Source: Lytechinus pictus
Taxonomy: Eukaryota
NCBI RefSeq assembly: GCF_037042905.1
Contig: NC_087247.1
Coordinates: forward strand, 11,354,148 to 11,418,147
Direction: 5' to 3'
Length of the DNA stretch: 64,000 nt
Below are positions 2,930 to 52,831 of this stretch, piece by piece (position 1 is the first letter of the stretch; each line of letters starts with the position of its first letter). Both the position numbers and the translations under genes were made by a program. The notes under the pieces are model-generated. The model ran no database searches. It saw only the letters and a program-made list of their open reading frames with translations, and was not told the DNA's origin.

Positions 2930-3080
2930 GTAACGCCGTGGTGTTAACATCAGGGGCCCGTAACACAAAGGTTAGCAATGATTGTAGAACATTTTCCTAC
3001 GATTGATTGCATTGGCTACAATGTACAATCAATCGTGAAAACCAAGCGTACGATTAATCGCTAACCTTTATGTTACGGGA
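2930..3080. mobile_element. MITE GGGGCCCGTAACACAAAGGTTAGC...GCTAACCTTTATGTTACGGGACCC. Related copies lie at 8315-8400, 16545-16640 and 53315-53350.
   Basis: TIRs are readable. The internal CGATTGATTG...CAATCAATCG inverted core is shared among copies. Confidence 0.75.
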
Positions 3081-6000
3081 CCCAGATCTTCACGACATCC
3101 TGGAGATCAGAAAGGGGGATTACACTTTAACTCTACATTAATTTGAAATTCACTACACAACCACCATTTCTATATGGTTCACCCTTAATCTGTCATTTGT
3201 TGTTTATTCTTAGAAACATATCATATTACTGCGTACAGTATACTAGGCGATGATACGGGAGCAAGGGGTTTTGTTTATCATTCCAGTCTTCGAGTTGTTC
3301 TACATCTTCAGTAGATCGGGTTATAATCTACTGGAACAGCGAACGTTCTTACGGTGGAATTATTCTGGCAACATGAATATCAATGAAAAATGATAATAAA
3401 AAATGTATCGACTCTTTTTGGCCCCAATGTATTGAACACACTCTAGCTTTTCCCCTTGTTATGTTTTATTATCAGAAAGGTCATAATTTGCATTGTAATA
3501 CATATGCCTATAATAAAAGAAAACTTCAAAACGTGAAAGCAGGTTAAGATATCATTTATTAGAAACTTCAACGAATATGGGCTGGAAATAACCATATCAC
3601 TAAATATGTTTAAATGATGAATTCGCTCCTACTAGTTCTACATCTACGTTAGATCTGGATTATCAAAAGTAGCCATTGATAAGAGACTACCAAGATAAAT
3701 ATTTGAATGTTTTCATAATCTACATACAAGCCAATGGACGTGGTTTTCATAAAATAGTATGCGAGTTACGAATGATTTCACGCCAGACTGGTGACCCTTT
3801 CTTTTGCTAAACGATGCATCCAAGTGTGGCTCATTTAGCACCGAAGAACATGTTCCAGTCGTGCGTAAAGTCTTAAGTTAATTCTCGAAAAGCTTTATGG
3901 AACACCCAAAAGGTGTATATGTGTGAGTCATAACTGATGGATTATCTTTCCGTTATAATGCAAACCATTAAGTAAAAATAAATATGCAAGTTTGTGGTGA
4001 CCTGCCGGTTCAATCGGGTTTGCTGATATTATTTTTGACAAGGCAATATTTGGAAAATTTTAGACCAGTCCACCCCCAAACTCCCCCCCCCCCCAATAAT
4101 CAATATAGAAAATGGTCATAATTCCCTTCACCATTCCAAACTATACAGGCCTCTAGGCCTAATGAAACACATGTACAAGCTTCCAATCATCGCTTTCGAT
4201 CGCTTTATTGAAGAAATTACACCCCGTTTATAAATGTCTCCATCTCCCATATATAACTTTTAGATGAATACATGACTTGTGTGTAATTTTCATGATGAGA
4301 ATTTGAGAAGATGCTGGGCTCCAAGCGCTTGGATGACAATTTTGATCTGACACCGGAGTCGTGTTGGAAGTTCAGTCAAAATGGGACCTATGCGTGTAGA
4401 CCTAGGCCACGCGAGAAAAGCAGAAATAGATAGAGGGGACGGGCATTAGGGAGGACTAGAATGACATGGAGGAGAGAAGGAGAGAGTATCAATTATAGAA
4501 GCGATGGCATTAATAAAGGGAGAAGAAATTCAATTAGAAAATACAGCAGGATGGTGGATGGTGTCATAGCCGGGGGAGAAGTATATGTATACCACATTGT
4601 ACCAACACTTATGTTACTTTACAATTTGATTACAAAGTGATAAAAAAAATGTCCAGTTGAAATTTTTTTTGCAGTACTAAGTATAACATCACACCCATGA
4701 AAAACTACACAGAGCCCTTCTTTCGATCTGGACGTCAGGGGTTCGAGACCCCTTAATCAATCATGATGTAAAAGATCTTGACCTTCTGTCTTCAGGTTAA
4801 GAGCTTGGCATGTTGAAACAGATTATCATGATCTGGACTTACATCAGAGAGAGAGAGAGAAAAAAAAGAAATTATGCCCTGCAAAAACGACCATATAGAC
4901 TAATTTGAGATAATCAACGTGGCTACCGTAGAAAAAAACCTTAATAAACCATTATTATTCGCATAATTCTTTGCCCAATCATATTTTAATGTGTTGATAC
5001 CGTTGTAATAGATGAGCATGATATTGAGTCACTGGCGTACCTAGGATTTTCCAGAAGGGGGGCAAATTTTTTGGAGGATATTTCATACCACAAAAAAATT
5101 TGACAAGCAAAAAAAAAAAAAAGTCTTCAACCACAAAATAATAAAGGATTTCTTACCACAAAAAAATTTTAAGGAAAAAAAAAAGGTCTTCAGGTTCAAA
5201 AGACGTATTTTTTTTATCGCATTTCACATTACAAATTATCAGTTGTGACTCGTCAGGGGGGCAGGGATACGTCCCCTGCATGAGTTGTGACTCGTCAGGG
5301 GGCAGTCTACCCCCCCCCCCTTAGGTACGCTAGTGTATTGAGTCCTTTTTATGCTTTCAGAATTAAACATGAAATTTAGAAGACATCCAGTCTGATTAAT
5401 CTAACTGAGGAAATCCGTGATGCATAATACATGTCCTCATAACATAACTGTCATACCATTCTATTTTATTTGGATTCATTCAAATTGAGCGTCTTTTTTT
5501 TTTCTTTTTTCCTAGTGAGCAAATCAAAAATCTAGATATTATTCAATCTTCAAATTAGTTACGAATTTCGCCTATAAATCTAATAAACTTGAGCGTAATT
5601 TTTACAATCAGTCATGACATTAATTACATTAAAAAAAGACAAGTCTGCAGTCTCGTCTGCACTACGCAATTCATACATGTAGTGATACTGTAAATTCGAA
5701 ACTTTTCTCTCTTTTATTTAACATTTGAAAATATAATGCAATAATCCATGGCCACTATTATTGAAAATGTAAATTATTGGTGCCCACTAATGCTGTAATA
5801 AAGAAATGTTCACTAAAGAGGAAATTGCCAAGCCCTAATATTGAATTTAAGGCATGATTATCATTTGATATCTACGAGAAAACATGCATATACACTTGCA
5901 ACATATAAATGGCAGATATTCCTGTACACAATATTATGACAAGTTTCAATGAATAAGGAAATGAATGGCTATGGCCGTTTACTTTTAAAAGTTGTAATCA

Positions 6001-6106
6001 CCAAATACATAAAATAAAGTAATTACTACAAAATCCTTTACAAAACTAATGGTCATAATGTATGCAGTATAATGGAGTATGACCATGATATGTTGAAAAA
6101 TATGTG

Positions 6107-7233
6107 ACAAGTGGAACGCATCTGGCAGTCTCGCCTGTATTACGCGATCCAATTTAGCAGCAGTGCTGACTTTGAAAACAACTATCGAATTATTCACAAA
6201 AACACCATTCATATGATAATATAATATTATGTTCATTGACCCTAAATGACCTTTGACCTTGGTTATGTGACATGACACTCACTCTGCATATTCAGTGATA
6301 TATGATTGCTCTTATGTAAAAGTTTCATGAACTAGATCTATAAACTTTCATAGTTATGATAGCAATTCAACAAATAACCCTAACATGGCCAAAGTTTATT
6401 GAACCTAATAACTTTGACCTTTGCCATGTGATCATAATGTTCAGTGATATACCATTACCCTTATGTCCAAGTTTCATGAACTGGATTCCTAAACTCACGA
6501 CATTTCAAAAACTTAACCTCAGTTAAGATGTTGAATACCACAACATGATATGTTAATTGACTCTAAATGACCTTTGACCTTAGTCCTGTAACCTGAAACT
6601 CCGGCAGGATGTTCAGTAACACTTGATTAATCTTATGTCCAAGTTTCATGAACCAAGTCCGTAAACCTTTTATAGGACAAGTCCACCCCAACAAAAAAAT
6701 GATTTGAATAAGAAGAGAAAAATCCATCAAGCATAACACTAAAATTTTCATCAAAATCGGATGTAAAATAAGAAAGTTATGACATTTTAAAGTTTCGCTT
6801 AATTTCACCAAACAGTTTGTTTAATACTGTATGATTCAGTCAAGTCGGTCCCTATGGTCAAATCTGTAAAAAAATGAAATATTGTATAATTCAAACAATA
6901 AAAAACAAAAGAAAAAGTGAGTGATGGACATCATCGACAGACTAATTTGCATGTCACTGAGTTGTGCATATCACTGTTTTGTGAAAAATAAGCGAAACTT
7001 TAAAATGCCATAATTTTCTTATTTTACATCCGATTTTGATGAAATTTTCAGTGTTATGCTAGTTTGATATTTCTCTATTTATTCAAATCAAAATTTTGCT
7101 GGGGTGGACTTGACCTTTAAGTTATGATATTTCAAAAACTTAACCTTGGTTAAGATTTTAATGTTGACGGCGCCGCCGTCGCAAAAGCGGGGCCTATATA
7201 GTCTCGCTCTGCCATGCAGGCAGGACAAAAATG
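6107..7233 (+). mobile_element. TIR-bounded non-autonomous element carrying an internal satellite-like array. About 14-bp terminal inverted repeats GTCTCGCCTGCAT / ATGCAGGCGAGAC. Internal tandem ~140-170-bp units (..ttcattgaccctaaatgacctttgaccttggt.atgtgac.tgaaactc..). Copy E1 is full length and hosts the nested Harbinger-like MITE.
   Basis: The start ..acaagtggaacgcatctggcaGTCTCGCCTGtattacgcg and the end ..ggcctatatagtctcgctctgccATGCAGGCaGGACaaaaatg are shared by six loci. The internal units are visibly reiterated. Confidence 0.75.
6680..7117. mobile_element. ~440-bp MITE with ~130-bp terminal inverted repeats (GGACAAGTCCACCCCAACAAAAA...). It has a 3-bp TTA target-site duplication, so it is PIF/Harbinger-like. 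Present in duplication copy A only.
   Basis: Copy A reads ..aaacctttta[tagGGACAAGTCC....GGACTTGACCttta]agttatgat. Copy B at about 11375 reads ..aaaccttttaagttataatgat with no element. Related copies lie at 22375..22960 and partially at 28330..28510. Confidence 0.8.
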
Positions 7234-7320
7234 ACATTCTTGTGACACAGTCATGACTGTGTCTGTGTACACACACACACACACGCATTATTATTTTATT
7301 CATTTTCATTTTCTAACAAG

Positions 7321-7475
7321 TGCACATCTAGTTACCAATAATGCATATAGCATTTCCATTTATTTGAAAGCAGGATAAAAGAGCAATGTCTTGCCAACGG
7401 GCATAGGTGCCGCAGCCGGGGATCGAACCCCGGACTTTCCATGTATAGCCAGGCGCCTTAGACCACTCGGCCACG
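7321..7475 (-). mobile_element. tRNA-derived SINE or tRNA pseudogene. The class-II-like head is GGTGCCGTGGCCGAGTGGTCTAAGGCGCC..GGGGTTCGATCCCC..CGGCACC. The tail is ..ATGGAAATGCTATATGCATT. It is duplicated at 11620..11782.
   Basis: Acceptor-like 7-bp stems pair. The D-loop GCCGAGTGGTCTAAGGCG and T-loop GGTTCGATCC are present. I could not form an anticodon stem-loop, so I do not call it a functional tRNA. Confidence 0.5.
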
Positions 7476-9104
7476 GCACCTCCACATACCCACACACCCA
7501 TCCTTACCCACTCACTCCCAGCGTCATACACTTAAATAAATTTAAAAAAAGTGAGTCAATAAGTCAATGTATTATGCCAACGATAAATTATTCATTATTT
7601 TTCAGGGAACTCCTTCCTTCAGTGGGGCTTTTAAAAACGATTATCATATTATTTTTTATATAAAATATACATACATGTATGACCTTGTGGAAACCCAATT
7701 AGCCAACATCCTCTATGATGAAGAACATAAAACATGTAACGGTAAAAGTCGAGCTGGTAACTCAATCTTATCACAATTTCAAAGGATTTGGTTCCATTCG
7801 ACTATTACCAGGTCTTTGAATAATTTCTCCCAACGTCTCTACCAACATTTAAACATTAAAACAGTATCCAATTGCTGACGTCATAAATTAACTTGAGTCG
7901 ATGCAGTTGTGAGTGGATTTGAGGTGTGACAAAACGCACGTACTCCTATTTTAATTTTTATCTACTTGCACAGAAAAAAAAAGAAAAGAAAAACTTAGAC
8001 AAATAAGATTGGTAATGTAATGTGGCAATTAGTTCTGATTATCCCTTTATGATAGTGTTCAATAAAGGATTGACTAAATCTGAAAGACACATTTACAAGG
8101 AAGAGGTCCTATTGCAAATATAATTTCCCCTGCGACTCTTTTGCTGTACTGCACTGCAAAAACACCGGTGTTGATTCAACACCAGCCCGGTATCTAAATT
8201 GTCCACATCAGAGAAGTGTTAAGCAACACCTATTTGATTTTGGTCTAACACTAGATAGGGGTTTATTATACAACACCAATTAGTAAAAACAGCATCGGTT
8301 TGATTCCAAACTGGGTCCCGTAACACAAAGGTTAGCGATTAATCGTAAGCTTGATTTTTACGATTGATTGTACATTGTAGTCAATGGAATCAATCGTAGA
8401 AAAATGTTGGTAAATCGACACTGGAGTTTTTGCATTGTAATTCAAATATTACACCTCCTTTTTTTTGGGGGGGGGGGGGGTAAGGTTACAATATAATCAC
8501 AATGTCTGATTGTTGTGTTTCAGGTCAGTGAAATACCAACTTCTTTGACTTTGTTCCTCTCTCCGTCTGTTCCTCGTATGCCACGCACCCTCATCTAATT
8601 TATTTATAAATAATTGGTAAAATGATTTTTTTTAAATGCCTCTGTCATTGTATGTTTTATGTCTGTATAATCATATCCCGTTTTAAACTGAATGTCATTC
8701 AGCCATTCGGCTATTTTCAGTACATATTTTTTTTCACATAAATCATTGAATAAATAAATAATAAATGAATAAACCAAAATCGGAACATTTATCATCCCGG
8801 TCGAATTTGTCAAATTGACTATTACTGAGTACTTAGATTCGATCCTCTTATTTCAATTAATCATATTCAACAAAGTGATAAAAAAGATTTCCAGTTGAAT
8901 TTTTTTTGCAGTACTAAGTATAACATCACACCCATGAAAAACTACACAGAGCCCCTCTTTCGATCTGGACGTCAGGGGTTCGAGACCCCTTAATCAATCA
9001 TGATGTAAAAGATCTTGACCTTCTGTCTTCAAGTTAAGAGCTTGGCATGTTGAAACAGATTATTATGATCTGGACTTACGTCAGAGAGAGAGAGAGAGCG
9101 AAAA

Positions 9105-10570
9105 AATTATGCCCTGCAAAAACGACCATATAGACCAATTTGAGATAATCAACGTGGCTACCGTAGAAAAAAACCTTCATAAACCATTATTATTCACATA
9201 ATTCTTTGCCCAATCATATTGAGCATGATATTGAGTCACTGGCGTACCTAGGATTTTCCAGAAGGGGGGTAAATTTTTTGGAGGATATTTCATACCACAA
9301 AAAATTGACAAGCAAAAAAAAAAAAAAAGGTCTTCAACCACAAATAAAAGAATTTCGTACCACCAAAAAGAAAAAAAAAAGAAAAAAAAAGGTCTTCAAC
9401 CAAAAAAAGGATTTCTTACCACCAAAAAATTTGACAAGCAAAAAAGAAAAAAAAAAGGTCTTCAGGTTCAAATGACGTCTTTTTTTATTGCATATTTACA
9501 TTACAAATTATTAATTTGGCATCTCAAAATGGGGGGGGGGGGGGGCACGTCCCCTGTATCAGTTGTGACTCGTCAGGGGGGGCAGGGAAACGTCCCCTGC
9601 ATGATTTGTGACTCGTCAGGGGGGCAGTCTGCCCCCCCCCCTTAGGTCCGCTAGTGTATTGAGTCCTTTTTATGCTTTCAGAATTAAACATAAAATTTAG
9701 AAGACATCCAGTCTGATTAATCTAACTGAGGAAATCCGTGATGCATAATACATGTCCTCATAACATAACTGTCATACCATTCTATTTTATTTGGATTCAT
9801 TCAAATTGAGAGTCTTTTTTCCCAGTGAGCAAATCACAAATCTAGATATTATTCAATCTTCAAATTAGTTACGAATTTCGCCTATAAATCTAATAAACTT
9901 GAGCGTAATTTGTACAATCAGCCTTGACATTAATTACATTTAAAAAAAAAGACAAAAGTCTGCAGTCTCGTCTGCACTACGCAATTCATACATGTAGTGA
10001 TACTGTAAATTCGAAACTTTTCTCTCTTTTATTTAACATTTGAAAATATAATGCAATAATCCACGGCCACTATTATTCAAAATGTAAATTATTGGTGCCC
10101 ACTAATGCTGTAATAAAGAAATGTTCACTAAACAGGAAATTGCCAAGCCCTAATATTCAATATTAGGGCTTGGCAATTTCCTGTTTAGTGAACATTTTTT
10201 TTTTCTTTTTTGCTTGTCAAATTTTTTGGTGGTAAGAAATCCTTTTTTTGGTTGAAGACCTTTTTTTTTCTTTTTCTTTTCTTTTTGGTGGTACGAAATT
10301 CTTTTATTTGTGGTTGAAGACCTTTTTTTTTTTTTTTTGCTTGTCAATTTTTTGTGGTATGAAATATCCTCCAAAAAATTTACCCCCCTTCTGGAAAATC
10401 CTAGGTACGCCAGTGACTCAATATCATGCTCAATATGATTGGGCAAAGAATTATGTGAATAATAATGGTTTATGAAGGTTTTTTTCTACGGTAGCCACGT
10501 TGATTATCTCAAATTGGTCTATATGGTCGTAAATATTAAATGATAATCAGGCCTGATTATCATTTAATAT
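9105..10570. repeat. Fold-back inverted duplication in copy B. 10159..10520 is the reverse complement of about 9105..9455 plus 10100..10157. It is joined through a perfect 81-bp palindrome centred at 10158 and closed by a second perfect ~50-bp palindrome at 10521..10570.
   Basis: Identical peptide MPNHIEHDIESLAYLGFSRRGVNFLEDISYHKKLTSKKKKK appears in ORF 9206..9475 (+) and ORF 10150..10446 (-). 10118-10157 is the exact reverse complement of 10159-10198. cgtaaatattaaatgataatcagg|cctgattatcatttaatatttacg is a perfect palindrome. Confidence 0.85.
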
Positions 10571-10805
10571 TTACGAGAAAACATGCATATACACTTGCAA
10601 CATATAAATGGCAGATATTCCTGTACACAATTATGACAAGTTTCAATGAATAAGGAAATGAATGGCTATGGCCGTTTACTTTTTAAAGTTTAATCACCAA
10701 ATACATAAAATAAAGTAATTACTACAAGATCATTTACAAAACTAATGGTCATAATTTATGCAGTATAATGGAGTAGTATGACCATGATATGTTGAAAAAT
10801 ATGTG

Positions 10806-11491
10806 ACAAGTTGAACGCATCTGGCAGTCTCGCCTGCATTACGCGATCCAATTTAGCAGCAGTGCTGACTTTGAAAACAACTATCGAATTATTCACAAAA
10901 ACACCATTCATATGATAATATAATACTATGTTCATTGACCCTAAATGACCTTTTACCTTGGTTATGTGACACGATACTCACTCTGCATGTTCAGTGATAT
11001 ATGATTGCTCTTATGTCAAAGTGTCATGAACTAGATCTATAAACTTTCAAAGTTATGATAGGAATTCAACAAATAACCCTAACATGGCCAAAGTTCATTG
11101 AACCTAATGACCTTTGCCATGTGATCTTATGTTCAGATATATACCATTACCCTTGTGTCCAAGTTTAATGAACTGGATTCATAAAATTTCAAAGTTATGA
11201 CGACATTTCAAAAACTTAACTTCAGTTAAGATTTTGATGTTGATTCCTCGAACATGTTAATTGACCATAATTGTCATTCGACCTTGGTCATGTAACCTGA
11301 AACTCCGGCAGGATGTTCAGTAACACTTGATTAATCTTATATCCAAGTTTCATGAACCAAGTCCGTAAACCTTTTAAGTTATAATGATATTTCAAAAACT
11401 TAACCTTGGTTAAGATTTTAATGTTGACGGCGCGCCGTCGCAAAAGCGGGGCCTATATAGTCTCGATCTGCTATGCAGGCGAGACAAAAAT
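10806..11491 (+). mobile_element. Same TIR/satellite element family, copy E2. Paralogue of E1 in duplication copy B, without the nested MITE.
   Basis: Start ..ttgaacgcatctggcagtctcgcctgcattacgcg. End ..tagtctcgatctgctatgcaggcgagacaaaaatg. Confidence 0.75.
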
Positions 11492-11619
11492 GACATTCAT
11501 GTGTGTGTACAATTAAAAAAAAATGAAAATAATAATAATGTGTGTGTGTGCATACACACAAATTATTATCTTTATGATAATTTTTTTTAAACAAGTGCAC
11601 ATCTACATGTAGTTACCAA

Positions 11620-11782
11620 TAATGCATATAGCATTTCCATTTACAGTATTTGAAAGCAGGATAAAAGAGCATTGTTGATTACGTGCCTTGCTCATGGACA
11701 TAGGTGCCGCGGCCGGGGATCGAACCCCGGACTTTCCATGTATAGCTAGGCGCCTTAGACCACTCGGCCACGGCACCTCCAC
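11620..11782 (-). mobile_element. Paralogous copy of the 7321-7475 tRNA-like SINE, within duplication copy B.
   Basis: Near-identical sequence ..ggtgccgcggccggggatcgaaccccggactttccatgtatagctaggcgccttagaccactcggccacggcacctcc. Confidence 0.5.
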
Positions 11783-12558
11783 ATAATCAGACACCCACCC
11801 TTACCCACTCACTCCCACCGTCATACACTTAAATAAATAAAATGAAAAAAATGAAAGTCAATAAGTCAATGTATTTATGCCAACGATCATTTATTCATTA
11901 TTTTTCAGGGGACTCCTTTCTGCATTGGGGCTTTTAAAAACGATGATTATATAATTTTTATATAAAATATACCCATGACTTTGTGGAAACCCAATTAGCC
12001 AGCTTCCTCTAGAATGAAGAACATAAAACATGTAACGGTAAAAGTCGAGCTGGTAACTCAATCTTATCACAATTTCAAAGGATTTGGTTCCATTCGACTA
12101 TTACCAGGTCTTTGAATAATTTCTCCCGTCTCTACCAACATTTAAACATTAAAACAGTATCCAATTGCTGACGTCATAAGTGAACTTGAGTGGATGTAGT
12201 GGTAGACTTGAGCGGATTTGAGGAGTGACAAAACCGCACGTACTCCTATTTTGATTTTTATCTACTTGCACTAAAAAAAGACAGAAAAGAAAACTTAGAC
12301 AAATAAGATTGGTAATGTAATGTGGCAATTAGTTCTGATTATCCCTTTATGATAGTGTTCAATAAAGGATTGACTAAATCTGAAAGACACATTTACAAGG
12401 AAGAGGTCCTATTGCAAATATTTCCCCTGCGACTCTATTGGTGTACTACACTGCAAAAACACCGGTGTTGATTCAACACCAGCGCGGTATCTAAATTGTC
12501 CACATCAGAGAAGTGTTAAGCAACACCTATTTGATTTTGGTCTAACACTAGATAGGGG

Positions 12559-12792
12559 TCTAAGTTCATTGACCCTAAATGACCTTGGTCATGTGACATG
12601 AAACTCATGCAGGATGTTCAGTGATACTTGATTAACCTTATGGCCAAGTTTCATGAACTAGGTCCATATACTTTCTAAGTTATGCTGTCATTTCAAAAAC
12701 TTAACATTCGGTTAAGATTTGGTGTTGACGCCGCCGCCGTCGGAAAAGCGACGCCTATAGTCTCACTCTGCTATGCAGGTGAGACAAAAATG
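12559..12792 (+). mobile_element. Same family, copy E3: 5'-truncated, with one internal unit plus the 3' terminus.
   Basis: ..gttcattgaccctaaatgaccttggtcatgtgacatgaaactc...gttgacgccgccgccgtcggaaaagcgacgcctatagtctcactctgctatgcaggtgagacaaaaatg. Confidence 0.7.
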
Positions 12793-15640
12793 AAAAAAAG
12801 AAGAAAACAGAAGAAATGAAGAAAAAAAAACAACTGAACAAAAGAGACTTACGCATATTTTTCACAACTATAATGCTGCTTTATTCTATTTTATAAACTT
12901 GGAAGAGATAACACTTGAAAAAAGTAAATGCACAATACATGATCAATCAAGGTATTTATTTAGAAGTTACAATATGCTTAATATCATATACATATGCACT
13001 GATCCTCGAATAAGCAAAGACTTTGTGGATTTCACTAATACTTCTTTTCAAATTAAGAATTTCTTTTCGTTCATACCATATTCTTTAAAATGATGCAAGT
13101 GTTGAGAGAAATTTTAAAATTCATGATTCAGTATACATTCCCCCTGAACAGGCATATTTTCCTCTCCATGAATAATGCATAAACCAAACAAAAAATTTTA
13201 AACCCAAATGAAATAAAACATGATTTATAATGGTAGTATTGTTTATTATTCCGCAATTCAAATACAATGCGTCCTTACTAACAGTGTTCTGTTTACTCAT
13301 TATATTTTGGGACTTGAAAATACCAATGAGAATATGATTTCATTTATGTTGTTTGATTACACTTAAATGCGTCTAAATACATCAAAAAAGGTAAATCCAA
13401 ACTAGAATACAAATAATTTTTTTCTCGTGGTCAAATTTTGCTCTTTTTTTTGGGGGGGGGGGGGGACGGTTGTCACAAGATTAAGTCCTTGATACATGCC
13501 TTCTCATCCTATTCATTTTACCAACAAAAAAGTGGCAAAATTTAATTTGAAAATTTATCGTACACCTGCTGAGCATAATGTTTCCATCTATTTCTACATT
13601 TGCCGATGGCTAACTATGTAAAAAAAATTCCAACAAAAGAAGCGGGGAAATTACACAATTCATTATACACCTGCTCAACAAAATGTCTCCATCTGATTCT
13701 CGCTGATTCTCGATTGCCCATGGCCGAATATGTTTCTCATAAATAGGTTTCATTGTGAATTCATATTCATGGAGCCTGGAGAGACAAAAAGAAACCACAT
13801 CAGAGGGGAGCTTTTCATCAACATTTTTGTCCGACAAGTAGTCAGATCTGACATCTTTCCTTGATTCTGATTTGCTGAAAGGCATTGTTGCTATGGTAAC
13901 TGTCGGTTTAAATGGTATTTGTCGGATAAAACGTCTGACAAATCCCTTCGTGAAACGCTACCCAGGTGTTGGAGTAATACACGGGGGGAAAACAGGAAGA
14001 GGCATTTGTCTGAAAAATAAAAAGCTTTTAATTTTTCTCTTGGACACACAAGCAATAGTTGTGATGTATAAATTACTGAGTTTGTAAATGGTTAAATGCA
14101 TAGCAAGAGTGAGGAAAAGATGCATAATATGCAGTGAAATATGGAGTAAGAATTTGGTTTACAAGCCAGACGGCACATAATAAATCTTTAACATTTCACC
14201 TTGATTGAAAATCCCAGTAAGAATAAACTTTATAATTCTTTTGTTAAAAAACCCCCATTGTTTTGGTCCTATCCACACCCCCTTTCACCAACGAGCAGCA
14301 TAAGCATTCCCAGATATAGATAAAAATCATTTAATATAACTGTTGATACTGGTATTTACAATGTCCATAGTATACTAAAATTTTCTAGTTAAATTAGATT
14401 TACATTTATCGACGAAGGAAAAGTAGGCAGGCAGTCTTTCATGTTTATATACAGATGATGAGATTTTTTTAGCCTTAATTATTGTAACTTCCATTGAAAC
14501 TTTGATGGTGATTGGATGACGAGTCCTGTTACCGTGGACGGTAGCTGCCACGATGGCAAAGTTATAGAGTACCGAACTGTGAGGTCATCAATTTTCACTT
14601 TTTGCATATGATCAGCACTTTTGATACCATATTTGGGTAGAGCATGATGAAAAAAAAAAACCACTACCAAAATTTGGTGGGAATCGGTCCATGGGGCCAC
14701 AAGATATGACCTCGTAAATACATAATTAGCCCAATTGAAGTCAATGTATTATTGGCCTGGTTCCTGACATTTAGAACCAGGCCAGTAATACACCAATAAC
14801 ACGCTGAAATGCTTTTAAAACAATTTGTGACGTCATTACTTCGGTACTTATGGTTGTGACTCTTTACGGAACGGACGCCTGATTATCCAATGTTAAGGTT
14901 TGGTAGGATGTCTTAAACAAAATGAACAAAGATCTTTATCAGCCACTGCTAACATATTTTTCTGAACTAGCATAGCATCGGTATATAAATAATGATGATG
15001 ATGGCATAATTCGATTAATAGCATTCTTTCCCTTCTAAATGTATTTACAATCCCGGCAAAACATGCAAACCAAACAAATCAAATAGTAATTTACTTGGAA
15101 AAGTGAGGGAGGGCCATTGATTCTTTGACCGGTGTTATTACATTTGCCATTTCTGGTATTTAACAAAATATCTTTATCATTCTCTTATCTTATCTTTCAT
15201 CAGTTCTTATGTATCTCTTTCTTTCAGCTATTCTTCCATCAATAATGTATTTCCTTGTTTTTCTTTCTTTCAACTTCCCTTTAAATTTTTCACTAATTTG
15301 CATTACAGTGCAACAAGTGTGTAGCAATAAAAAGAGATCATGCAAATTGTATGAGATATTTCTACTGCGCGTAAATCCACTGGACGAAGATGACTACGTC
15401 TATATGCCAAGGTTATCAGATGAATCAATACACCCCTTTCCTACGCTAAAGCAGTGATGATGTCACGAAGAAAATTTGCAGCCTTACATAATTGACTGCT
15501 TGATTCTGAAGAATATGTAATCTACTCATATCATTAAAATGTCTGTATAAAACATATAATGCACAGGGTCAAGTTTGTGACATTCGTGGCTCTGATGCAA
15601 GCATTTCTGATTATATAATTTTCCTCTCATTTTTACATCG

Positions 15641-16046: not shown

Positions 16047-16639
16047 AGGGACATGATGGAGTTCAACGAGATTTCTTGTGTTTCCTGCAACGGAAGAGAA
16101 ATAAAGAGACAGAGACAGAGATATAGAGATATTAATAATGATATCTATATGATTTAAAATAATATTCAATACGCTAAATTATGATCATGTTGTTGTTGGG
16201 TGTTAACACCTTGTATCTCAAAATTTAAAATAATTTAGGACAGCTTAGAAGATGCTTGCTTTTAGAATGATAAACCTAGCTACCTCTTTTGCCAAGAAAA
16301 GAGTTCTCTCTAGAAATTAGGAGACCCTTTTTCACACATTATGAGGCTGCCACCATTACAATATTTCTAAAAGAACATCTCTTCTGAGCTACTCTCAAGC
16401 TATTCAAATCTTAAGATACGAGGTTTTAAAATGCCAGCAATGATGCATTTAATATAAAATAATACAACAATTAAGTACTGCTAATTATTACCTCAGCTTT
16501 AGCACCCTCATAGGGCACTCAAGTATTCAAAGAATTCCATCATACCTGGGTCCCGTAATGAAAAGGTTAGCGATTAATCATATGCTTAAATTTCACGATT
16601 GATTGTACACTGTAGTCAATGCAATTGACCCCCTTCTCT

Positions 16640-16932
16640 CTCTTAACCTTGGTTACGATTTCGATATTGATTCCCCCAACATGGTCTAAGTTCATTGACC
16701 CTAAATGACCTTTGACCTTAGTCATGTGACCTGAAACTCAGGCAGGATGTTCAGTAATACTTGATTACCCTTATGTCCAAGTTTCATGAACTAGGTCCAT
16801 ATATACTTTCTAAGTTATGAGGACATTTCAAAAACTTTAACCTTGGTTAAGATTTCAATGTTGACGACACCGCCGCCGCCGTCGGAAAATCGGCGCCTGT
16901 AGTCTCGCTCTGCTATGCAGGCGAGACAAAAA
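16640..16932 (+). mobile_element. Same family, copy E4: 5'-truncated, abutting a MITE at 16545-16640.
   Basis: ..catggtctaagttcattgaccctaaatgacctttgacc...gtcggaaaatcggcgcctgtagtctcgctctgctatgcaggcgagacaaaaag. Confidence 0.7.
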
Positions 16933-18889: not shown

Positions 18890-20290
18890 GGCAACAACTC
18901 TGGCACATTGTCCTCAATGATCAACGAAAGACTACTTTCCAGAGGCACTCCCTAATCACTTACAGAAAAGTTGATCAAGATGAGTGGAATGGAATTAGTA
19001 GATGCACACAATTTACACAAAGCCAAACCTTCAGGAGGATTTGTTTTCCTTAAAAATTAGTGTCCACCTCTTGCTAACCAAGACATGGCATTTGAGATGG
19101 CCAACACGTTCCTCTGTTTCTTTGGGGGGTTAGACGTCTAAAAATCTCTCTTGAGGTTACCAACTTCTTGAAGGTAACAGCAAAAATGGTATGCTGTGAA
19201 ATTGGTTGTTGGTTTTATTTCCCGACGGTTCCCTAGATTTCTTCCAAGCCTACAGGTATCAAAGAAGGATGATGAAATCTATTCTATGCTCATTCCTACA
19301 CATTTATCATTTTGAAATTTAAAAAAAAATCTTTCATCTTGGGCATCTCTCTCTGACAATGTTCTCAACTTCTCATTATACTTTCTAAAACTAGTTTACT
19401 GGAAATCAGTTCAGGAAAGCAATTTGGAAGATCGCTTTGCTAGCGTTCCCATTTAATCAGCCGAAAGTGGCTTAGAAATTAGTAAGTCTCAATCTCTTGC
19501 TTATCAAGATAGAGCATGTGAGATGGCCAACACGTTCCTTTGTTTCCTTGGGGGGTGGGGGAGGGGTCGGATGTCTAAAAATTCATCTTGAGGATACCAA
19601 CTTCTTGAAGGTAACAGCAAAAATGGTATGCTGTAAAATTGGTTATTGGTTTTATTTCCTGACGATCCCCTAGATTTCTTCCAAGCCTACAGGTATTAAA
19701 GAAGGATGATGAAATCTATTCTTTGTAAAGCATGCTCAATCCTACACATTTATCATTTTGAAGAAAAAAAAATCTCTTTCATCTTGGGCATCTTTCTCTA
19801 AAAAGATGTGTGGTCTTTTTTTTTCCATAGGCAACAACTCTGGCACATCGTCCTCAATGATCAATGCAAGACAGCTTTTCAAAGGCACTCCCTAATCACT
19901 TACAGAAAAGATGATCGAGATAAGTGGAATAGAATTAGCAGGTATTGATCATTGATGCACACAATTCACACAAAGCAGTACCCTTCGGGAGTATTTTTTT
20001 TCCTTGAAAATTATTTAGTTTCCACCTCTTGCTACCAGCTACCGGTAATCAAGATATGGCATGTGAGGTGGCCAACACGTTCCTCTGTATCCTTGGTGGG
20101 TTGGACGTCTAATAATCCATCTTAAGGTTACCAACTCCTTGAAGTTAATAGAGAAAAATATGATATGCTGCAAAATTGGTTAATGGTTTTATCTCCCGAC
20201 GATCCCCTAGATTTCTTCCAAGCCCACAGGCCATTAAAGAAGGATGATGAAATCTATTCTATGTAAGCATGATCAATTCTACAGAGTCAT
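18890..20290 (+). repeat. Tandem repeat of ~3 copies of a ~450-bp unit; the middle copy is partial.
   Basis: 18890-19330 and 19831-20290 are collinear (ggcaacaactctggcacat.gtcctcaatgatcaa...gatggccaacacgttcc...catttatcattttgaa). 19480-19800 repeats the second half. ORF-track peptides 18677..18955 and neighbours recur. Confidence 0.8.
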
Positions 20291-21900: not shown

Positions 21901-22374
21901 GAAGAAGCATTTTGAAATTGTGGACGGACTACAGACGACGGACGCCTGATGAGCTAAAAAGGAGATAAAGAGAAGAAAGAAAAAGAGACAAAGAGATGAA
22001 AGAAAAGGAGCAAAAGAAGAAGGCAAAAATTAAGAAAAAGTACAGACAGAGATGAAGCAACATAGGAGTAAAAGAAAAAGTGGAGTTAAGGCTTGCTACA
22101 ACAATTCAACCTGAAGTGTAATTATATTCTCCTGACCCAGATACTTGCATGGGTGCATGGGAATACCCTTTTTGTAAACAGGGTGGAGTCATCAAGAAAG
22201 AGGGTACCAGATCGTCAACGTGACGCAGCGTACACGTTCTTGAGAGGTTCGATACACAGGAATGGTGCTCTATAAATGCACTTCTCCCCGGAGTAGCGAG
22301 CCCATAAATGGTTCAATCACAGCAAGCACTCTGTGTCTAAAAGCTGCCCTAACAATAAATTACATATTAAAGGA

Positions 22375-22960
22375 CAAGTCCACCCCAACAAAAAGTTGAT
22401 TTGAATAAAATCCACCAAGCATAACACTGAAAATTTCAGCAAAATCAGATGTAAAATAAGAAAGTTATGACATGTTAAAGTTTCACTTAATTTCACAAAA
22501 CAGTTATATGCACATCCTGGTCGGTATGCAAATGAGGTGACTGATGACGTCATCCACTCACTATTTCTTTTGTATTTTATTATATGAAATATTCTAATTT
22601 TCTCCACAATGTTAAGTGAATCAACGACTAATTCCTCCCTAAACATGTGGAATTAGCATTGTTTAATACTATATGGTTCAGTCAAGTTGGTCCTTATTGT
22701 CAAATCTGTAAAAAATGAAATATTGTATAATTCAAACAATAAAAAACAATAGAAATAGTGAGTGATGCACATCATCGACTGTCTCACTTGCATATCACTA
22801 AGTTGTGCATATCACTGTTTTGTGAAAAATAAGTGAAACTTTAAAATGTCATAACTTTCTTATTCTACATCTGATTTTGATGAAATTTTCACATTATGCT
22901 AGTTTGATTTTTCTCTATTTTTTCAAATCAACATTTTTCTGGGGTGGACTTGACCTTTAA
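22375..22960. mobile_element. Second copy of the GGACAAGTCCACCCC long-TIR MITE family.
   Basis: Termini ggacaagtccaccccaacaaaaagttgatttgaataaaat... and ...ttttcaaatcaacatttttctggggtggacttgacc. ORF-track peptides 22317..22646 and 6563..6811 are homologous (FLILH..L.K..VLCL.DF..I.F.LLGWTCP). Confidence 0.7.
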
Positions 22961-23168
22961 GGTAAGATGTGAACCTTGAAACTAATTGAAAGCATGTATA
23001 AAAACGAAACACTAATGAAACAGATCAATAAAAAATTGGGTGAACAATAAGGACATACATGTAACAAGCATTTATATGCCAAAAATGCAAATGCTATGGA
23101 CCCAAGAAGAATATCACAAATAGATAACTTTCCCCTATGATGGGGCAAATTACCCAAAAGCGTTAATT

Positions 23169-23803
23169 TTTGTCTCGCCTGCATAGCAGAGCGAGACTAT
23201 AGGCGCCACTTCTCTATGACGGCAGCGGCATCAACATTGAGATCTTTTGTGAAATTTTTGAAATGTCTTCATAACTTAGAAAGTATATGAACCTAGTTCA
23301 TGAAATTTTGGGTCTTCAATTAACAAGGAATTTCCTGCCTGAGTTTCAGGTCACATGGCCAAGATCAAAGGTCATTTAGGCTTAGGGTCAACTTAGACCA
23401 TGTTGGGTAAATAAACATCAAATCTTAACCAAGATTAAGTTTTTGAAATGTCATCATAACTTTGAAAGTTTATCATTCATGGATCGAGATCATGAAACAT
23501 AGACATACACTGTAAGAGCAATCAAGTATCAGTTAACATCCTGCCTGAGTTTCAGGTCACATGACCAAGGTCAAAGCTCATTTAAGGTCAATGAACTTTG
23601 GCCATGGCATGTTGGGGTATTTTTTGAATTGCCATTATAACTTTGAAAGTTTATGGATCCTTTTCATGAAACGTTACGGCCTTAGTATCACTGATCGTTT
23701 AGCACTAGTCTTAGGTCACATGATCAAGGTCAAATTCGGCATTGCTGCTATAATGAATCGAATGATGCAGGCAAGACTACCAGAGGAGTTCCACTTGTTT
23801 ACT
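23169..23803 (-). mobile_element. Same family, copy E5 in inverted orientation.
   Basis: 23169 tttttgtctcgcctgcatagcagagcgagactataggcgcc is the reverse complement of the 3' terminus. 23770-23803 ..gcaggcaagactaccagaggagttccacttgt is the reverse complement of the 5' terminus. Internal units lie between. Confidence 0.7.
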
Positions 23804-25843
23804 CATTCTGATGAAAGTACTACAAACTCTTTGTGTATCATATATTTTGTGATACGCCTGGGCCTCGTCTTTCGAAGAGTTGCGATATATTGAAATCAAG
23901 CTCGAACTGCGATTGACGTGAATGAAAATATGTCATGAAATTTATTCAAATGCATTTTAATTCAAGCAGTTTGAACTTAACATTTAGAGTTCATCCAATA
24001 TCACAATAATATCACTTTTTTTAAAACACCATTGATTATCCTTTACACATTCTTGGAACATACACTCTCCTAGCACAATTGATATGACGTGGAAAATATA
24101 ATATAATCTACATCAACAATCAATTATTCAAAATAATTGGTAAACTCTGCATTTATGGTTCCACAAAGACCACTATACCACTTTGAAAAAAATACAATTG
24201 GTTAACAGCTTGTAAATTAGACAGTTTGATGTGATTAACATGTACATGTAAGTAGGAAATAATGTCATCAGTGGAAGTAAAATGCAGGCAAAACATCCCC
24301 AATGTGATTTAGAGAGAAAACATTTTATCTGATTAATTCATAATGTTAGAAAAATGGCGAAATGGCATTACAATTCGCTCGGAGTCAGATAACGATCACC
24401 CTCCCCCAAAGACCTAAGGATATGCAGTAGGGCCACGGTTGTTGAACAAGTTATTTTTAACATGTGGCATAGGGATGGGGTTTGGGATTGGGTCCAAAAC
24501 ATCATGGAGGGAGCTTTCTACCTCCATGAATACATGTAGTGCAGTGCAGTACAATGTAGCTGGGAGGAAATCAGGAAATATCTTGGGGAAAAGATTATGT
24601 TACCGATTATCGGAGAGGCTGTGTGATTGAAGAGGTTGCTATGGAGACAGCATGCCTTTCAGGAGTGCTTTGTGAAGAGTCTTCTTGAGGGTGATATTTC
24701 ACCAACAAGCTTGCTCTCAGCCAATGAGATTTAAGGATTTCAGTAGCTTATAACATCAGGTTAATTCAGTTAATACCACTGAAAAGGTCCTGCATAAAAC
24801 ACTTCCCTGACCCCCCCCCCCCTTCCCTTTTATAATTCATGAAACAGAACATACGGAAAATGCTTTATCGGGTCTTACCATCCATACAATTAATCTGTAA
24901 ACAATAATCGGTTATTGGCCAATCATGTCTCTCCCAACATAACAATGTCACTGAAATGGACCAGCTATATCCCATCAACCATCCCAACTATCCAGACAAA
25001 ATAATACTCAATAGTACTGCTACAAGTGCAATGCTATCTAGTACAGTGACTACAGTCACACTTGTGAAATCAACACCAAACTGACAAAATACCCATCAAG
25101 CAACAGACCACTGGTTGGGTTGGAGTGTGACTGTACAGTGCGTCCCAGAAAAAAATGAAACTGAGATTAAGCCATGATTTATCATAACTTAATCACAAAT
25201 GCAATAGACAAATGACCTACCAATGTAAAGCTTAGAATCTCCTCTTTCACCTGATATTACATGTACTTAGATTATTCCTCATTCACGCAAGAGTGAGCAA
25301 AAACAATTTGAAGAAAGGATACCAAAAACTCCTTTGGCGGGGGGTATCTGAATTTTAAAAAGAAAATCACATGCCTAAAAAGTTCAATATCTGCTCTTTT
25401 ATTTGATACCTTAATCACAAAAATGGTCAAAAAGTAAAAAAAAAAGTTGTGTTCGCTCGAAACAATGCTTGTATTTCCATAATTTCATTAAATAAGCGTG
25501 TTTTCACCTGTTTCCCACAGAAGCTATTGCATGGTTAACAAGAGACTTAATAATGCATGGCTGATTGTCAACAAAACAGAGTGTCGAGTGAGTTTGAACG
25601 CTAGCCTGTAAAACCTCTTCATTTTATGAAATTATTGAAATTCAAGCCTTATTTCAAATAACCAGAACTTTGTTATTTCTTGACCATTTTCTGGAATTGA
25701 GGTATCAAATTAAAGAGCAGACCTATATTGAACTTTTTGAAAATGTGGTTTTCTTTTTGAAACCCAGATACAGCCCGCCGGATGACTTTTGGTATCCCCT
25801 TTTCAAATTGTTTTTGCTTTATGCATGGAAGCCTTAAGAAGCA

Positions 25844-27769: not shown

Positions 27770-29765
27770 TCAGTAGGTCAGTCCAAGTAATTTTTTTCAG
27801 AACAGACTTTGCAAGCCAAATTTTGCATATATGTACTTTTGCATATATATGAAGTCAACAGATTTCTTTGTTAGAGATTTGAAAAAGGGGACTAACTTCT
27901 ATTTGTATCCCACATCCATATTGACAGGAACTCTGTCATGTACAAAACATTCATCCTCCAAAACAAAACAACAGGCCTCACAGTGGATGACGACAAATTA
28001 AAACACCTACGCACAACGTCAGCACTCTAATACATGATTGCATCATCAGAGATTAAGGCACACTGCCAGAAAAGAATGCTAATGAGGAGACTTCTCTCTT
28101 TTAAAAGAAGAAATCATAAAAAGGAGATTTGCAAGATGAATCAAACATTATTCATCCACATATCACGTTTATAGAAGAAAACAGAGCAAACAACATTGTA
28201 AAATGTTAGGAAATTCTAACAATCGATAATTTAAAAGCTTAATTTTATCAAAAGTAGTGATTTGCATATTGCATTAGCGCTGATGGTCTGCACCACTCCA
28301 ATATGCTATGTGCAAAATATGAACTGAGCAATTATATTTCAAATTATTCAACAATGGGGATTGTTTTGTGAAAGTAAGCGAAACTTTAAAATGTCATAAC
28401 TTTCTTATTTTACACTGTGACATCCGATTTTGATGAAATTTTCAGTGTTTTGCTTGTTGGATTTTTCTCCTTTTATTCAAATCAACTTTTTGTTGGGGTG
28501 GACTTGTCCTTTAATAAAGAAACAAGTAACTCCAGGCGAGCAAAGGAAGGTGGTGTGTTATTTCATAAACGCCGTGGCCAAGAGAGCGATCCCCAATCAA
28601 GCAGAGATATCGATAACATTAACAACTTAACAATTGACAACAATCATCATAATCGTTTTATGATGGTGATGGTGAGAAGTGTATGTGGCCCCAAATTTTG
28701 GCAATGTGAAATACTTGTATTTGAAAGACATTGGCCAGCCATGATCTTTATCTCGATGGAAAAGGGGTTATGAAAGCTAAATGAAAGTAGTTGCAGTAAA
28801 ACACTGATTTCATGAGAAAGTCTGTAAAACCAAGGTTAAGTATCACTTTATTATCGTGGATCTAGATCTGGTACAGTTACATAAACTGAACTTTGTGAAA
28901 TCATAAAATCTAAGCTGACAAACGATCACACTGAAGATCGCCAACACAGATAGGCACACGTGGGACAGTGTACATTATTATTGCTGGAATAAAGACCAAT
29001 AAAGACCCGACGGAGGTGCCCGAATACACGCTTATTTTACTTATTTCTTCCAGAATCCTTTGGCACATATTTTTCATTCATACAAACAGAAACATCGTTA
29101 CCACAACTGGCATTCATCTTTAATGACAACCACATCACTTACCAGGGAGATAAAGTGGTTTCTCTCTCTCTCTTTCTCTCCATCTCTCTAAAGTAGTTTG
29201 CAAGTGTACAGATACAGACTTGTGTGAAACATTATAGTTTGATAGTGCCTGAAAACTGAACCCACAATTCCTCGCTAAAAACGAAAGAGAAACTACACGC
29301 ATAAAACAGAGGGGTCGAGACCAAAAAAAGGAACATAAAACAAACTATTAGCAAAACCAAACAACAAATAAACAAAGCGATGAAAAGAATTACAATCAAT
29401 GACAATTGCCCAATTTGACACCTAACCCTGAATTCTCAACATTGCAAACTAAAATGTGAACATTTGACTTGGGGGAATTCCCTTTTAAACTCATGCAGTG
29501 GTATGCTGACAATTAAACCTTAGTCTACACTAGAATTTTAAACCGCACTTTTACGGAATGCTGGGATTCATAATATTTTCCCATATTCATTGCAATTATA
29601 ATGTATCGATTAACTCATCAAAATTCATCATATTTTTCCATTTTCCCATTCTACCAATTTCAGGACTCATCAATTTATTATTTTTTAAAACTTTATACAG
29701 CAGGATAAGAGAAATACCACTCATGGAACGTTTCAAGAGCCTTAGGCAAGGAAAACGACTTTGGA

Positions 29766-30247: not shown

Positions 30248-32559
30248 AAGAAAGGGTTCTCTTCCTGTTACGGAGTGTCTGGGGAGAGTAGACTACATAG
30301 TATGGTTTCCTCACTGTTTCCAACACTTTGTTTTTGTGAGTCATCTTTTGACGCAAAATCCCCCTTTTCCTGTTTTTCTGCATGCATGGTGGTCAAACCC
30401 ATTTACGCAGCGGGGGAAACGTCAATTTGTAAAAGCCCACGACTGGGTGATATTTGTTTATTGTTTTTTCCTGTGACAGTTAAAGGCAATATAACCATAT
30501 TGAATGGCATCAGAGTGATCGAGTCCTGGGCCCAGTCTTACAAAGAGTTACGATTGATCCGATCAACCTCAACTATACGGAAATTTAGTCTACAGGAAAT
30601 TTGTAAAATGTCCTTTGTAAACAAAGAGAAGCAAAATGAATTATAAAGAAAATGATGGATGTATGAAAATATGTCATACCTAAAATATATTTTTAACAAA
30701 CGGTCATTTTATATGTTGGCGTTGCTGGCCATCCATAGTTGTGATTCATCAAATCAATTGCAACTCTTTGTAAGACAGGGCTCCATTTCATAAAACTTAT
30801 AACAAATTTACAGTAAGTTAAATGCTACTGAAATCCTTCAATCTGATTGGCTGATGGTAAATTTGTTATAGAAATTAGACATTTGTTATCATAACAGGTC
30901 TTTATGCAACGGGACTTTGAACTGCTTAAATGGTTCCTGATTCTTTACCCAGAATGCAATGTGTTTATTATGCACATTTTATAGCAGATCTCTCCCAACC
31001 CATGTGCCTGGTAAATTGAGATGGTTTTCAACCCCCCCCCCCCCAAAAAAAAAAAAGCAGGAGTGTAGTACAGTATTTCCAAAAGGATTGTACAATGAAG
31101 TTATCAAGCAAAATCAGAAAATTCTATTGAAACAACACCTAATTCATATTCTAGACTCCAAATTCAGAACTGTTGAGGAATCAGGAACCTGTTTCATAAA
31201 GACCTGTTATAATAACAAGTGCATAATTTCTGTTAACAAGGATGCTATCAGCCAATCAAATTGAATGATTTCAGTAGCTTTAAACTGCTATTGTAAATTT
31301 GTTATTATAATCAAAACAAGTTTTATGAAACAGGTCCCTGATTGACTTTTACTAAGAATGACCCCCTGCCCCTCCCCCCTCTGCCTTCTCAAAGAGCACG
31401 GAGCATTTCTATCAAATAGAAAATGGTGCTAGAAAAGAAATAGCATATATCATCATTACCATTATCATTATCATATCACACTTGTCATTGTTCATACAAT
31501 AGATATTGTGCTCCAGAATAATAGGATCACACACAGACTTCGAACATTCTAATTTTTCAATAAAAAAGGAATAAATGGACATCAAATTTCATCAAAACCA
31601 AACTTTTCAACTGTTTTATCAAGATGAAGCTGTTAATCCAACAGTAAATGACACTTCACTGTTGTGAATCCTAAAGGGATATATCATCTTTGCAGTGTTT
31701 TAGTTTGGATTCCATGTACAGTACATGTAGACCAAAAATTATCTGCACTATATCATGCTCATCGTTCATTTCAAAACGTCAATATATTTGAAGACTGCAA
31801 TATTTCTCAAATCAAACCACGTTTCATCACACTGCACCAGCTACAACGCAAGCTGTAACGAAGGTCTGGCGAATCTTGCAGCCTTGCGAGCGAAAGCTTA
31901 CCCCAAAAAACCAGGTAATTCTATTGTGAAAAAGAAAGTTTTCTCAAGTATATGTACACCTTTGTATTCTTTTCAACATTTCCATGTTTAGGGGATAAAC
32001 CCAAGTACATTCATGCACAGCTCAACTATGAATTAGACAAGTTCTGTCTGTAGTCGTTACATACTCAGACCTGCCAACCTCTGAGAATGAAAAACTGTAT
32101 TCTGTGATAAAAAAACTGTATTTTACCCAAAAAAAGTGTATTTCATAATAAAATGCTTGGCGCACTCGCTCATCGCGGCGCTCAAGCTGCATGCAAGCTA
32201 AAATGCGCACTGCTCTTGCAGATGAAAAAAAAAACATCAAAACATATGTATATCTTCACCCTGACTTGAACAAAATGATTGAAAAAAAAAACAAGTTACC
32301 TGAAATTACATTGATCTAATAACCATATTTGTGCACATTTTATGAAATAGAGACATATAGAGATTATTTTTCTCAATAAATTACGATTTAGTTTAAAAAA
32401 ATATTTTATTATTATTATTATTTTTTTATTTATTTTTTTTACAAAAAAACATATTTTTCAAAGGAAAAAACGTACTGCCGTATTTTGGTTGCAAAAACGT
32501 ACTAAATACGGCTAAAACGTACTGGTTGGCAGGTCTGCATACTGTGAGTCAATAAACAA

Positions 32560-52458: not shown

Positions 52459-52831
52459 CTGTGGAAAAGAAACATCATTTCATTACCAGTGAGCAGCGAT
52501 TGACAATAGATTAACTCTGTTCCGATTCAGTCTTTGTGTTTTGTTATTAGAGGTAACAGAGAATTACGGAATGTTGAAAGTCCTTCAAATCAAAATTAAT
52601 TGCAATTAATTACAAATTTGCAATAGATCGCAAGTCTCCTTTTTCTATCAACAGGTATATATCGATTTGCTTTGATTGAACATCGACCTATCATTGGAAA
52701 ATTTGCATCCGAAATTTGCAATTGATAGCAAAAATTTTCTTGCAATGCAACACCCCCAAAGTCGCAACCTTGAACAACTCCAACCCAGATCAAGAGAAGA
52801 TCCATCAGATTCTGAGACAGTTTCAACTGAC

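Follow-up and report, generated by a model that had tools for sequence, protein, structure and literature searches.

The window analysed here is a stretch of 64,000 nucleotides of Lytechinus pictus DNA (assembly GCF_037042905.1, contig NC_087247.1, positions 11,354,148 to 11,418,147). Towards its left end, two collinear copies of a unit of about 3.6 kb lie on the same strand and are separated by a spacer of unique sequence. Both copies contain the same three nested repeats: a miniature inverted-repeat transposable element (MITE) flanked by an 8-bp target duplication, a satellite-bearing element and a tRNA-like element. Copy A additionally carries a second MITE with long terminal inverted repeats (TIRs), and copy B a fold-back insertion. 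The window has no Ns and a G+C content of 36.6%, and is metazoan-like and packed with interspersed repeats. No coding potential was detected between 4.6 and 12.6 kb by an open reading frame (ORF) and Pfam scan, and no Rfam or ARAGORN match was obtained at curated thresholds. In our view the locus is likely to represent a true local (near-tandem) duplication, in which about 3.6 kb of non-coding metazoan DNA rich in transposons was copied and then underwent ordinary decay and the two copy-specific events. The arrangement of the unit, as established by BLAST and gapped global alignment, is as follows.

4632-8262, copy A, 3,631 bp
8263-8869, spacer between the copies, 607 bp, not duplicated
8870-12559, copy B, 3,690 bp, collinear with copy A and on the same strand

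The initial annotation had described two collinear copies about 600 bp apart, and these coordinates bear it out. It had also expected more than 95% identity, a figure just reached when substitutions only are counted: over 3,091 aligned columns of the gapped alignment there are 2,956 matches and 135 mismatches (95.6% identity; 95.5% in a wider alignment frame), whereas identity falls to 87% when gap columns count and the two large copy-specific insertions are left out. The mean divergence is 4.4%, with a Kimura two-parameter distance of 0.045 and a transition to transversion ratio of 61:74. The alignment contains 51 gap events, mostly of 1-11 nt, or about one indel per 60 bp. Taken one by one, the BLAST segments are 88-96% identical. 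Divergence indeed differs significantly between segments, from 2.4 to 9.1% (chi-square p = 6.5e-6): it is 2.4-3.0% in 4632-5029, 5336-6106 and 7758-8262, and 6.0-9.1% in 6107-7757. Gene conversion of the outer parts, quicker decay of the satellite and tRNA-like sequences, or alignment noise are possible reasons for this unevenness. Apart from matches to its known dispersed repeat families, no third copy of the unit was found in the window.

The first of the shared repeats is a MITE with the TIR CACTGGCGTACCTAGG, recognised by sequence reading and motif positions.

5030-5335, plus strand, MITE in copy A, with the target duplication TATTGAGT at 5022-5029 and 5336-5343
9237-9656, plus strand, the same MITE in copy B, with the target duplication TATTGAGT at 9229-9236 and 9657-9664 and additional internal repeat units

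Since the same 8-bp target duplication surrounds the element in both copies, its insertion predates the duplication. Its interior is composed of tandem units, some of 59-68 bp and others of 43 bp, present in different numbers in copies A and B. The 8-bp target duplication hints at the hAT superfamily, whose termini follow a YARNG consensus, but the CACTG terminus found here does not fit; this suggests as candidates those superfamilies that make 8-bp duplications. Some of the G or C homopolymer runs of 10-16 nt seen in the window (4080-4099, 5308-5320, 8452-8474, 9533-9548, 13436-13458 and 31031-31053) belong to this MITE. Such runs often come right after a T run, as T(n)G(n), and those outside the MITE are likely hard to sequence.

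The second shared repeat bears a satellite and occurs at matching positions in both copies, as well as elsewhere in the window.

6107-7231, minus strand, satellite-bearing element in copy A, interrupted by the long-TIR MITE
10806-11490, minus strand, satellite-bearing element in copy B, uninterrupted
57877-59057, further copy, complete
about 23166-23810, minus strand, further copy
16663-16932, further copy
12557-12790, minus strand, truncated copy with about 1.3 units and one terminus, the other end missing, directly adjoining the end of copy B

A 13-nt subterminal inverted repeat (GTCTCGCCTGCAT) is present near both ends of this element. Nested in one of the two subterminal repeats is a short inverted repeat or palindrome, GTCTCGC..GCGAGAC, with a T5 string at that end (minus strand), and the centre is occupied by an array of units of about 165 bp. 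No target site duplication was recognised in three copies. These features are those of the HINE architecture, namely 12-15-bp subterminal inverted repeats, a palindrome or inverted repeat beside one of them, central tandem repeats, a T string and the lack of a target duplication. This architecture has been described for non-autonomous Helentrons of the HINE/DINE-1 group (PMC4067079), and satellite-carrying forms of the HINE/DINE-1 type are known from oysters (PMC7492417). HINEs also show a preference for inserting at TT. In contrast to HINEs, the element has no recognised microsatellite module, and no Helentron Rep/helicase partner was seen in the window. We describe it as HINE/Helentron-like in architecture. 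About 470 bp upstream of the element in both copies (5640-5670 and 9955-9985) lies a lone stretch resembling its subterminal part (GCAGTCTCGTCTGCACTACGC), which may represent a solo terminus. At 42201-42852 and 19126-19725 there are further repeats, tandem or dispersed, with a unit length of about 164 bp, near that of the HINE-like satellite.

The third shared repeat is a tRNA-like element that resembles a short interspersed nuclear element (SINE).

7270-7483, minus strand, tRNA-like, SINE-like element in copy A, with its head at 7483
11541-11780, minus strand, the same element in copy B, with its head at 11780

The head contains the A box TGGCCGAGTGG and the B box GGTTCGATCCC of an RNA polymerase III promoter, and its acceptor, D and T arms pair. 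It is followed by an unrelated body and then by an A/T-rich and (TG)n tail. At relaxed thresholds the Rfam tRNA model scores 22.5 bits at 7408-7480 and 22.4 bits at 11705-11777 (both minus strand), short of the gathering score (29), and ARAGORN made no call for the element. The two duplicated copies are the only ones in the window, and no target site duplication was recognised around them. A tRNA-derived SINE is a plausible identity. The earlier proposal that a TIR/satellite element and a tRNA-like repeat were already nested in the unit when it was copied is thus upheld, both by the identical target duplication of the MITE and by the matching positions of the other repeats.

Copy B alone contains a fold-back of 393 nt (10159-10551), which can be mapped to the base as three inverted local pieces.

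10159-10197, minus strand, piece 1, exact reverse complement of 10119-10157, the turn being at base 10158
10195-10530, minus strand, piece 2, reverse complement of 9122-9456, copy B's own sequence
10527-10551, minus strand, piece 3, exact reverse complement of 10552-10576, with the palindrome centre between AGG and CCT

Piece 2 comprises 115 bp of host flank and the left part of the MITE with the 8-bp target duplication. It is 99-100% identical to copy B and at most 97% identical to copy A, and has indels specific to copy B; it is therefore a local copy made after A and B had diverged, and not a product of transposition. In about 335 nt it differs from its source by one mismatch (at 10276) and by a homopolymer length (T16 vs A15). 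Set against the 4.4% between the copies, this single mismatch makes the fold-back much younger than the duplication. Pieces 1 and 2 overlap by 3 nt (TTT) and pieces 2 and 3 by 4 nt (TCGT, complement of ACGA), and an internal jump skips 662 nt. When the sequence of copy B before the event is approximated by that of copy A (...CCCTAATATTGAATTTAAGGCATGATT...), about 3 ancestral bases appear lost at the fold-back; the first turn-around would then share ATT (3 nt), and the second up to 6 nt, in AGGCCT, if copy B already had C there. What had been noted as a fold-back inverted duplication is thus present, in copy B only, and younger than the duplication, although its structure is that of a three-piece templated insertion and not of a simple inverted duplication.

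All pieces derive from nearby sequence and are joined at microhomology, as is expected of template switching. Fold-back inverted duplications with microhomology are known at breaks and forks (PMC3907307), and templated inverted insertions at breaks (PMC11724301). The fold-back shares with such events, attributed to microhomology-mediated break-induced replication (MMBIR), fork stalling and template switching (FoSTeS) or fold-back, the inverted copies of nearby sequence, the short junction microhomology and the hairpin-like turns, here at AATATT and AGGCCT (PMC3907307; PMC11724301). With three pieces in 393 nt it is far smaller than human fold-back duplications and larger than the insertions of about 5-34 bp in yeast, and it is seen as a fixed sequence in one assembly only. 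Judged from its junctions, it looks like the outcome of serial template switching (fold-back, MMBIR or FoSTeS), the alternative being a chimeric-read artefact. The latter would leave the duplication real and make the fold-back a product of sequencing or assembly, such as a chimeric or palindromic long read or an amplification chimera. Its arms are 99-100% complementary amid DNA diverged by 4%, it is the sole inverted repeat of that complementarity in the window, and both turn-arounds are perfect hairpins with loops of 0-1 nt. Amplification chimeras, too, join inverted segments at microhomology. Against an artefact, four junctions, three source pieces and a skip of 662 nt are more complex than a missed-adapter palindrome, the arms differ by one mismatch and one homopolymer length, and few ancestral bases were replaced, as in a repair event. 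We regard an artefact as unlikely, while giving it appreciable weight.

At relaxed thresholds, matches to microRNA families at 10113-10201 merely reflect the perfect hairpin, and a Hammerhead_1 match (17 bits, E = 4) is due to chance, its core motifs being on opposite strands. Another inverted repeat, of compound structure, is located at the end of the window (63041-63989), with arms of 166 nt (95% complementarity), 96 nt (97%) and 70 nt (90%). A Foldback-like element or a further rearrangement may account for it.

The event specific to copy A is the insertion of a long-TIR MITE inside the last satellite unit. Its arms are about 143 nt long and 86-88% complementary.

6674-7116, no strand assigned, long-TIR MITE of 443 bp, flanked by TTAT (6670-6673) and TTAA (7117-7120), in copy A only
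11374-11377, empty target site in copy B, a single TTAA (sequence AAACCTTTTAAGTTAT)
22371-22956, second copy of the long-TIR MITE, with TTAA on both sides
28362-28510, half-copy of the long-TIR MITE, then TTAA

Copy A reads AAACCTT-TTAT, then the element from AGGACAAG to CTTGACCT, then TTAA-GTTAT, and copy B reads AAACCTT-TTAA-GTTAT, with no footprint. Among the three copies in the window, four of the five termini abut TTAA and one abuts TTAT. A TTAA target together with AG/AGGRR termini defines Kolobok and T2-family MITEs (PMC6004289), and the termini found here are AGGAC and AGGTC. Moreover, the terminus AGGACAAGTCCACCCC is identical at 14 of 16 positions to the TIR of Xenopus XKol-A3, AGGACATGTCAACCCC (PMC6004289 Table 5). 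The fifth base is C where AGGRR has R, as it is in XKol-A3 and A4, which likewise have AGGAC. The strict Repbase rule of at most one mismatch in positions 1-11 is narrowly missed, since the terminus has two. As in the Xmix/T2 and XKol elements of Xenopus (PMC6004289), a short non-coding element with inverted ends begins with AGG and is flanked by TTAA; unlike in those elements, the arms are far longer and fold-back-looking, and the host is not a frog. No transposase ORF was found in the window. As judged from its ends, the MITE is best classed as Kolobok/T2 type and not as Harbinger, because of its TTAA flanks and empty site and of the match to the XKol-A3 terminus.

The initial annotation had called this element a Harbinger-like MITE of about 440 bp with a TTA target duplication. 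The element, its restriction to copy A and the intact empty site in copy B all stand, but the target is TTAA, and the Harbinger affiliation gives way to Kolobok/T2. A short TIR element in an A/T-rich target is indeed reminiscent of PIF/Harbinger (Tourist-like) MITEs, and a TTA reading is possible at either side of every copy, yet A follows in all three right flanks and the empty site is TTAA. The 3-bp TWA target duplication of that superfamily is not found, an extra unpaired base (A or T) standing at the left terminus of both full copies. Furthermore, the termini are presumably unlike Harbinger TIRs. A piggyBac origin was rejected as well: the TTAA target fits, but the termini are A...T (AGG...CCT) and lack the conserved C...G, the first C being the one highly conserved position of piggyBac TIRs (PMC5381638). 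Recent activity of the family, as suggested earlier, is not supported: the three copies in the window are 7-12% different from one another, and a mutation has already altered one flanking TTAA. A metagenome scan for further copies gave one match, a chance hit on a GC-rich contig that is unrelated to the window and shows no similarity to it, and a literature text search for the four transposon termini as strings returned nothing relevant.

That the MITE entered copy A after the duplication is the parsimonious reading, and a quite probable one. Had it instead been in place before the unit was copied, with a clean excision from copy B afterwards, this order of events would be wrong. The differences of 7-12% between family copies, the mutation of the left TTAA to TTAT in copy A and the position of the MITE in the most diverged segment of the unit would agree with such an older insertion, and TTAA-targeting piggyBac elements do restore their site on excision (PMC5381638). 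Precise excision is, however, documented for piggyBac and not for Kolobok, and excision is unmentioned in PMC6004289. Insertion is also the commoner event, the copy differences may reflect different source copies, and no footprint is seen at the empty site in copy B. Loss from copy B thus appears improbable, if worth keeping in mind.

The boundaries of the duplication bear on how it was built. Homology between the copies starts sharply at ACAAAGTG on the left and stops sharply after GATAGGGGT on the right, and the flanks of the unit are not themselves duplicated. In copy A plus spacer, GATAGGGGT runs on into TTATTATACAACACC, within a candidate element that crosses this boundary.

8145-8444, no strand assigned, candidate TIR-bounded element crossing the copy A/spacer boundary at 8262, with arms at 8145-8184 and 8405-8444

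Its arms are complementary at 30 of 40 positions and form the top inverted repeat in 8050-8900, with a score reached in none of 200 shuffles (shuffle maximum 28). Copy B holds the left arm only; the right arm is missing downstream of copy B and is present solely in the spacer. Copy A plus spacer is therefore the original contiguous sequence, and copy B a truncated derived copy. Both ends of copy B would be rearrangement breakpoints. At its right end, copy B shares GGT with the truncated satellite-bearing element at 12557-12790, which matches 16683-16932 and 58814-59057 at 86-90%. Because copy B is truncated and also abuts a truncated element, at least one further rearrangement step is needed.

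When the spacer was compared with the sequence left of copy A and right of copy B, down to word size 7, the only matches were a dispersed MITE and low-complexity T(n)G(n) runs. The stretch 8681-8780 was considered as one of two spacer copies with 13112-13209 and rejected, the 66% match being not collinear and far too diverged. A small MITE family with the TIR GGGTCCCGTAACAYAAAGGTTAGC is complete (about 135 bp) only at 2955-3088 (minus strand), and truncated at 8311-8408, in the spacer, and at 16546-16625. The copy at 16.5 kb is directly upstream of a satellite-bearing element, and the same two families bracket copy B. The plain tandem structure assumed earlier does not hold, as copy B is cut within a TIR-bounded element that is complete only across the copy A/spacer boundary. 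The locus resembles tandem segmental duplications dated by nested transposons, in which common insertions with identical target duplications likewise predate copying and copy-specific ones postdate it. It differs from plain ones in its unique 607-bp spacer and in the truncation of copy B against a truncated satellite element. Two routes would lead to this structure. A tandem duplication of 4632-8869 may have been followed by a deletion from the second copy's equivalent of 8263 (8263') into the downstream satellite element; alternatively, a single replication event with two template switches may have produced it.

An assembly artefact has to be considered as well. Copies A and B could be the two haplotypes of a highly heterozygous individual laid in series by the assembler, in which case the MITE, the fold-back and the indels would be allelic. 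A divergence of 4.4%, an indel about every 60 bp and differences in transposon presence are indeed allele-like, and such divergence is typical of alleles in very heterozygous marine invertebrates. A mis-join of this kind predicts, however, that either the left flanks or the right flanks of A and B are allelic to each other, and neither is seen, even at word size 7. The lack of resemblance between the spacer and either outer flank speaks against two haplotype contigs simply joined end to end. Ns and gap marks are absent, and the inverted-repeat-bounded element runs smoothly across the copy A/spacer boundary. Judged from this one assembly, haplotype mis-assembly seems distinctly improbable as the source of the two copies. 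That a composite mobile element of about 3.6 kb inserted twice, giving A and B, is scarcely credible: the copies are close together and their ends sharp, but the unit shows neither terminal repeats (inverted or direct) nor a target duplication nor ends of the Helitron type, no third copy exists in the 64 kb, and the right end of copy B cuts an element of which only copy A and the spacer together contain the full length.

A true duplication with two later insertions thus remains the preferred reading, and its events can be ordered as follows. The MITE with the 8-bp target duplication and its mini-satellite, the Helentron/HINE-like element and the tRNA-derived SINE-like element would all have been present before the duplication. 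The unit would then have been copied, copy A plus spacer being the original and copy B the derivative, and the copies would have diverged by 2.4-9% and gained their 51 indels. The Kolobok/T2-type MITE would have entered a TTAA within the satellite element of copy A. Much later, the 393-nt inverted insertion would have arisen in copy B from pieces within about 1.4 kb, by serial template switching at a stalled fork or break. The order shared elements, then duplication, then fold-back is firm if the fold-back is real. The earlier description of the duplication as young, with a clean chronology, was overstated in view of a mean divergence of 4.4% that rises to 9% near the MITE; the shared elements do come first, and the fold-back does come after.

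Several points weigh against this history. A single duplication date does not account for the contrast in divergence along the unit unless gene conversion or local rate differences are invoked. The formation of the duplication, by either route, is something that we infer, and the microhomologies at the two turn-arounds of the fold-back lean on copy A as a stand-in for the ancestral copy B. Under a single-burst model, the differences of 7-12% between the MITE copies exceed the roughly 2% accumulated per copy since the duplication, which leaves room for a MITE older than the duplication. Finally, with a single assembly as the basis, serially misplaced haplotypes and a chimeric-read fold-back both retain some of the probability.

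Elsewhere in the window, exons of a kinesin-6 gene (KIF23/MKLP1-like) lie on the minus strand at 52650-61400, with KIF23-type exons at 52.9-61.3 kb and motifs including DLAGSE. When concatenated, they are 63-79% identical to the best database proteins, which come from molluscs, coral, hemichordate and others. The gene runs toward the duplicated region, which is about 40 kb away. An ORF at 47084-47575 (minus strand), which we take to be the C-terminal tail of a non-LTR (long terminal repeat) retrotransposon, matches no Pfam family, and its relatives, at most 78% identical, were found only in metagenome assemblies. One of these relatives (46th by E-value, 48% query cover) has a reverse transcriptase domain (PF00078). 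The metagenome contigs concerned share only that retroelement with the window.

The locus is neutral and reflects ordinary genome turnover, with no function implied. It offers a compact worked example of how nested transposons order the events around a duplication, and has little importance beyond annotation. For annotation, three lessons can be drawn: a TTA read at one copy can hide a TTAA target; the copy-specific absence of a cut-and-paste element alone gives no insertion date; and near-perfect fold-backs and diverged neighbouring copies should first be checked against reads. Mildly notable are the Kolobok terminus, strikingly close to a frog one in an apparent invertebrate, and a multi-junction fold-back that can be read directly. 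On the most far-reaching and quite improbable reading, the fold-back would have arisen very recently, as a true event in the germline of a wild invertebrate, with four template switches in succession inside about 1.4 kb, of which two fell at short palindromes. It would in that case illustrate, in nature and on a small scale, the replication-based mechanism that has been inferred for complex rearrangements in humans, and its inverted repeat, with a spacer of about 740 nt and arms that total about 375 nt, could be a new hairpin-RNA or fragile-site locus, polymorphic in the population.

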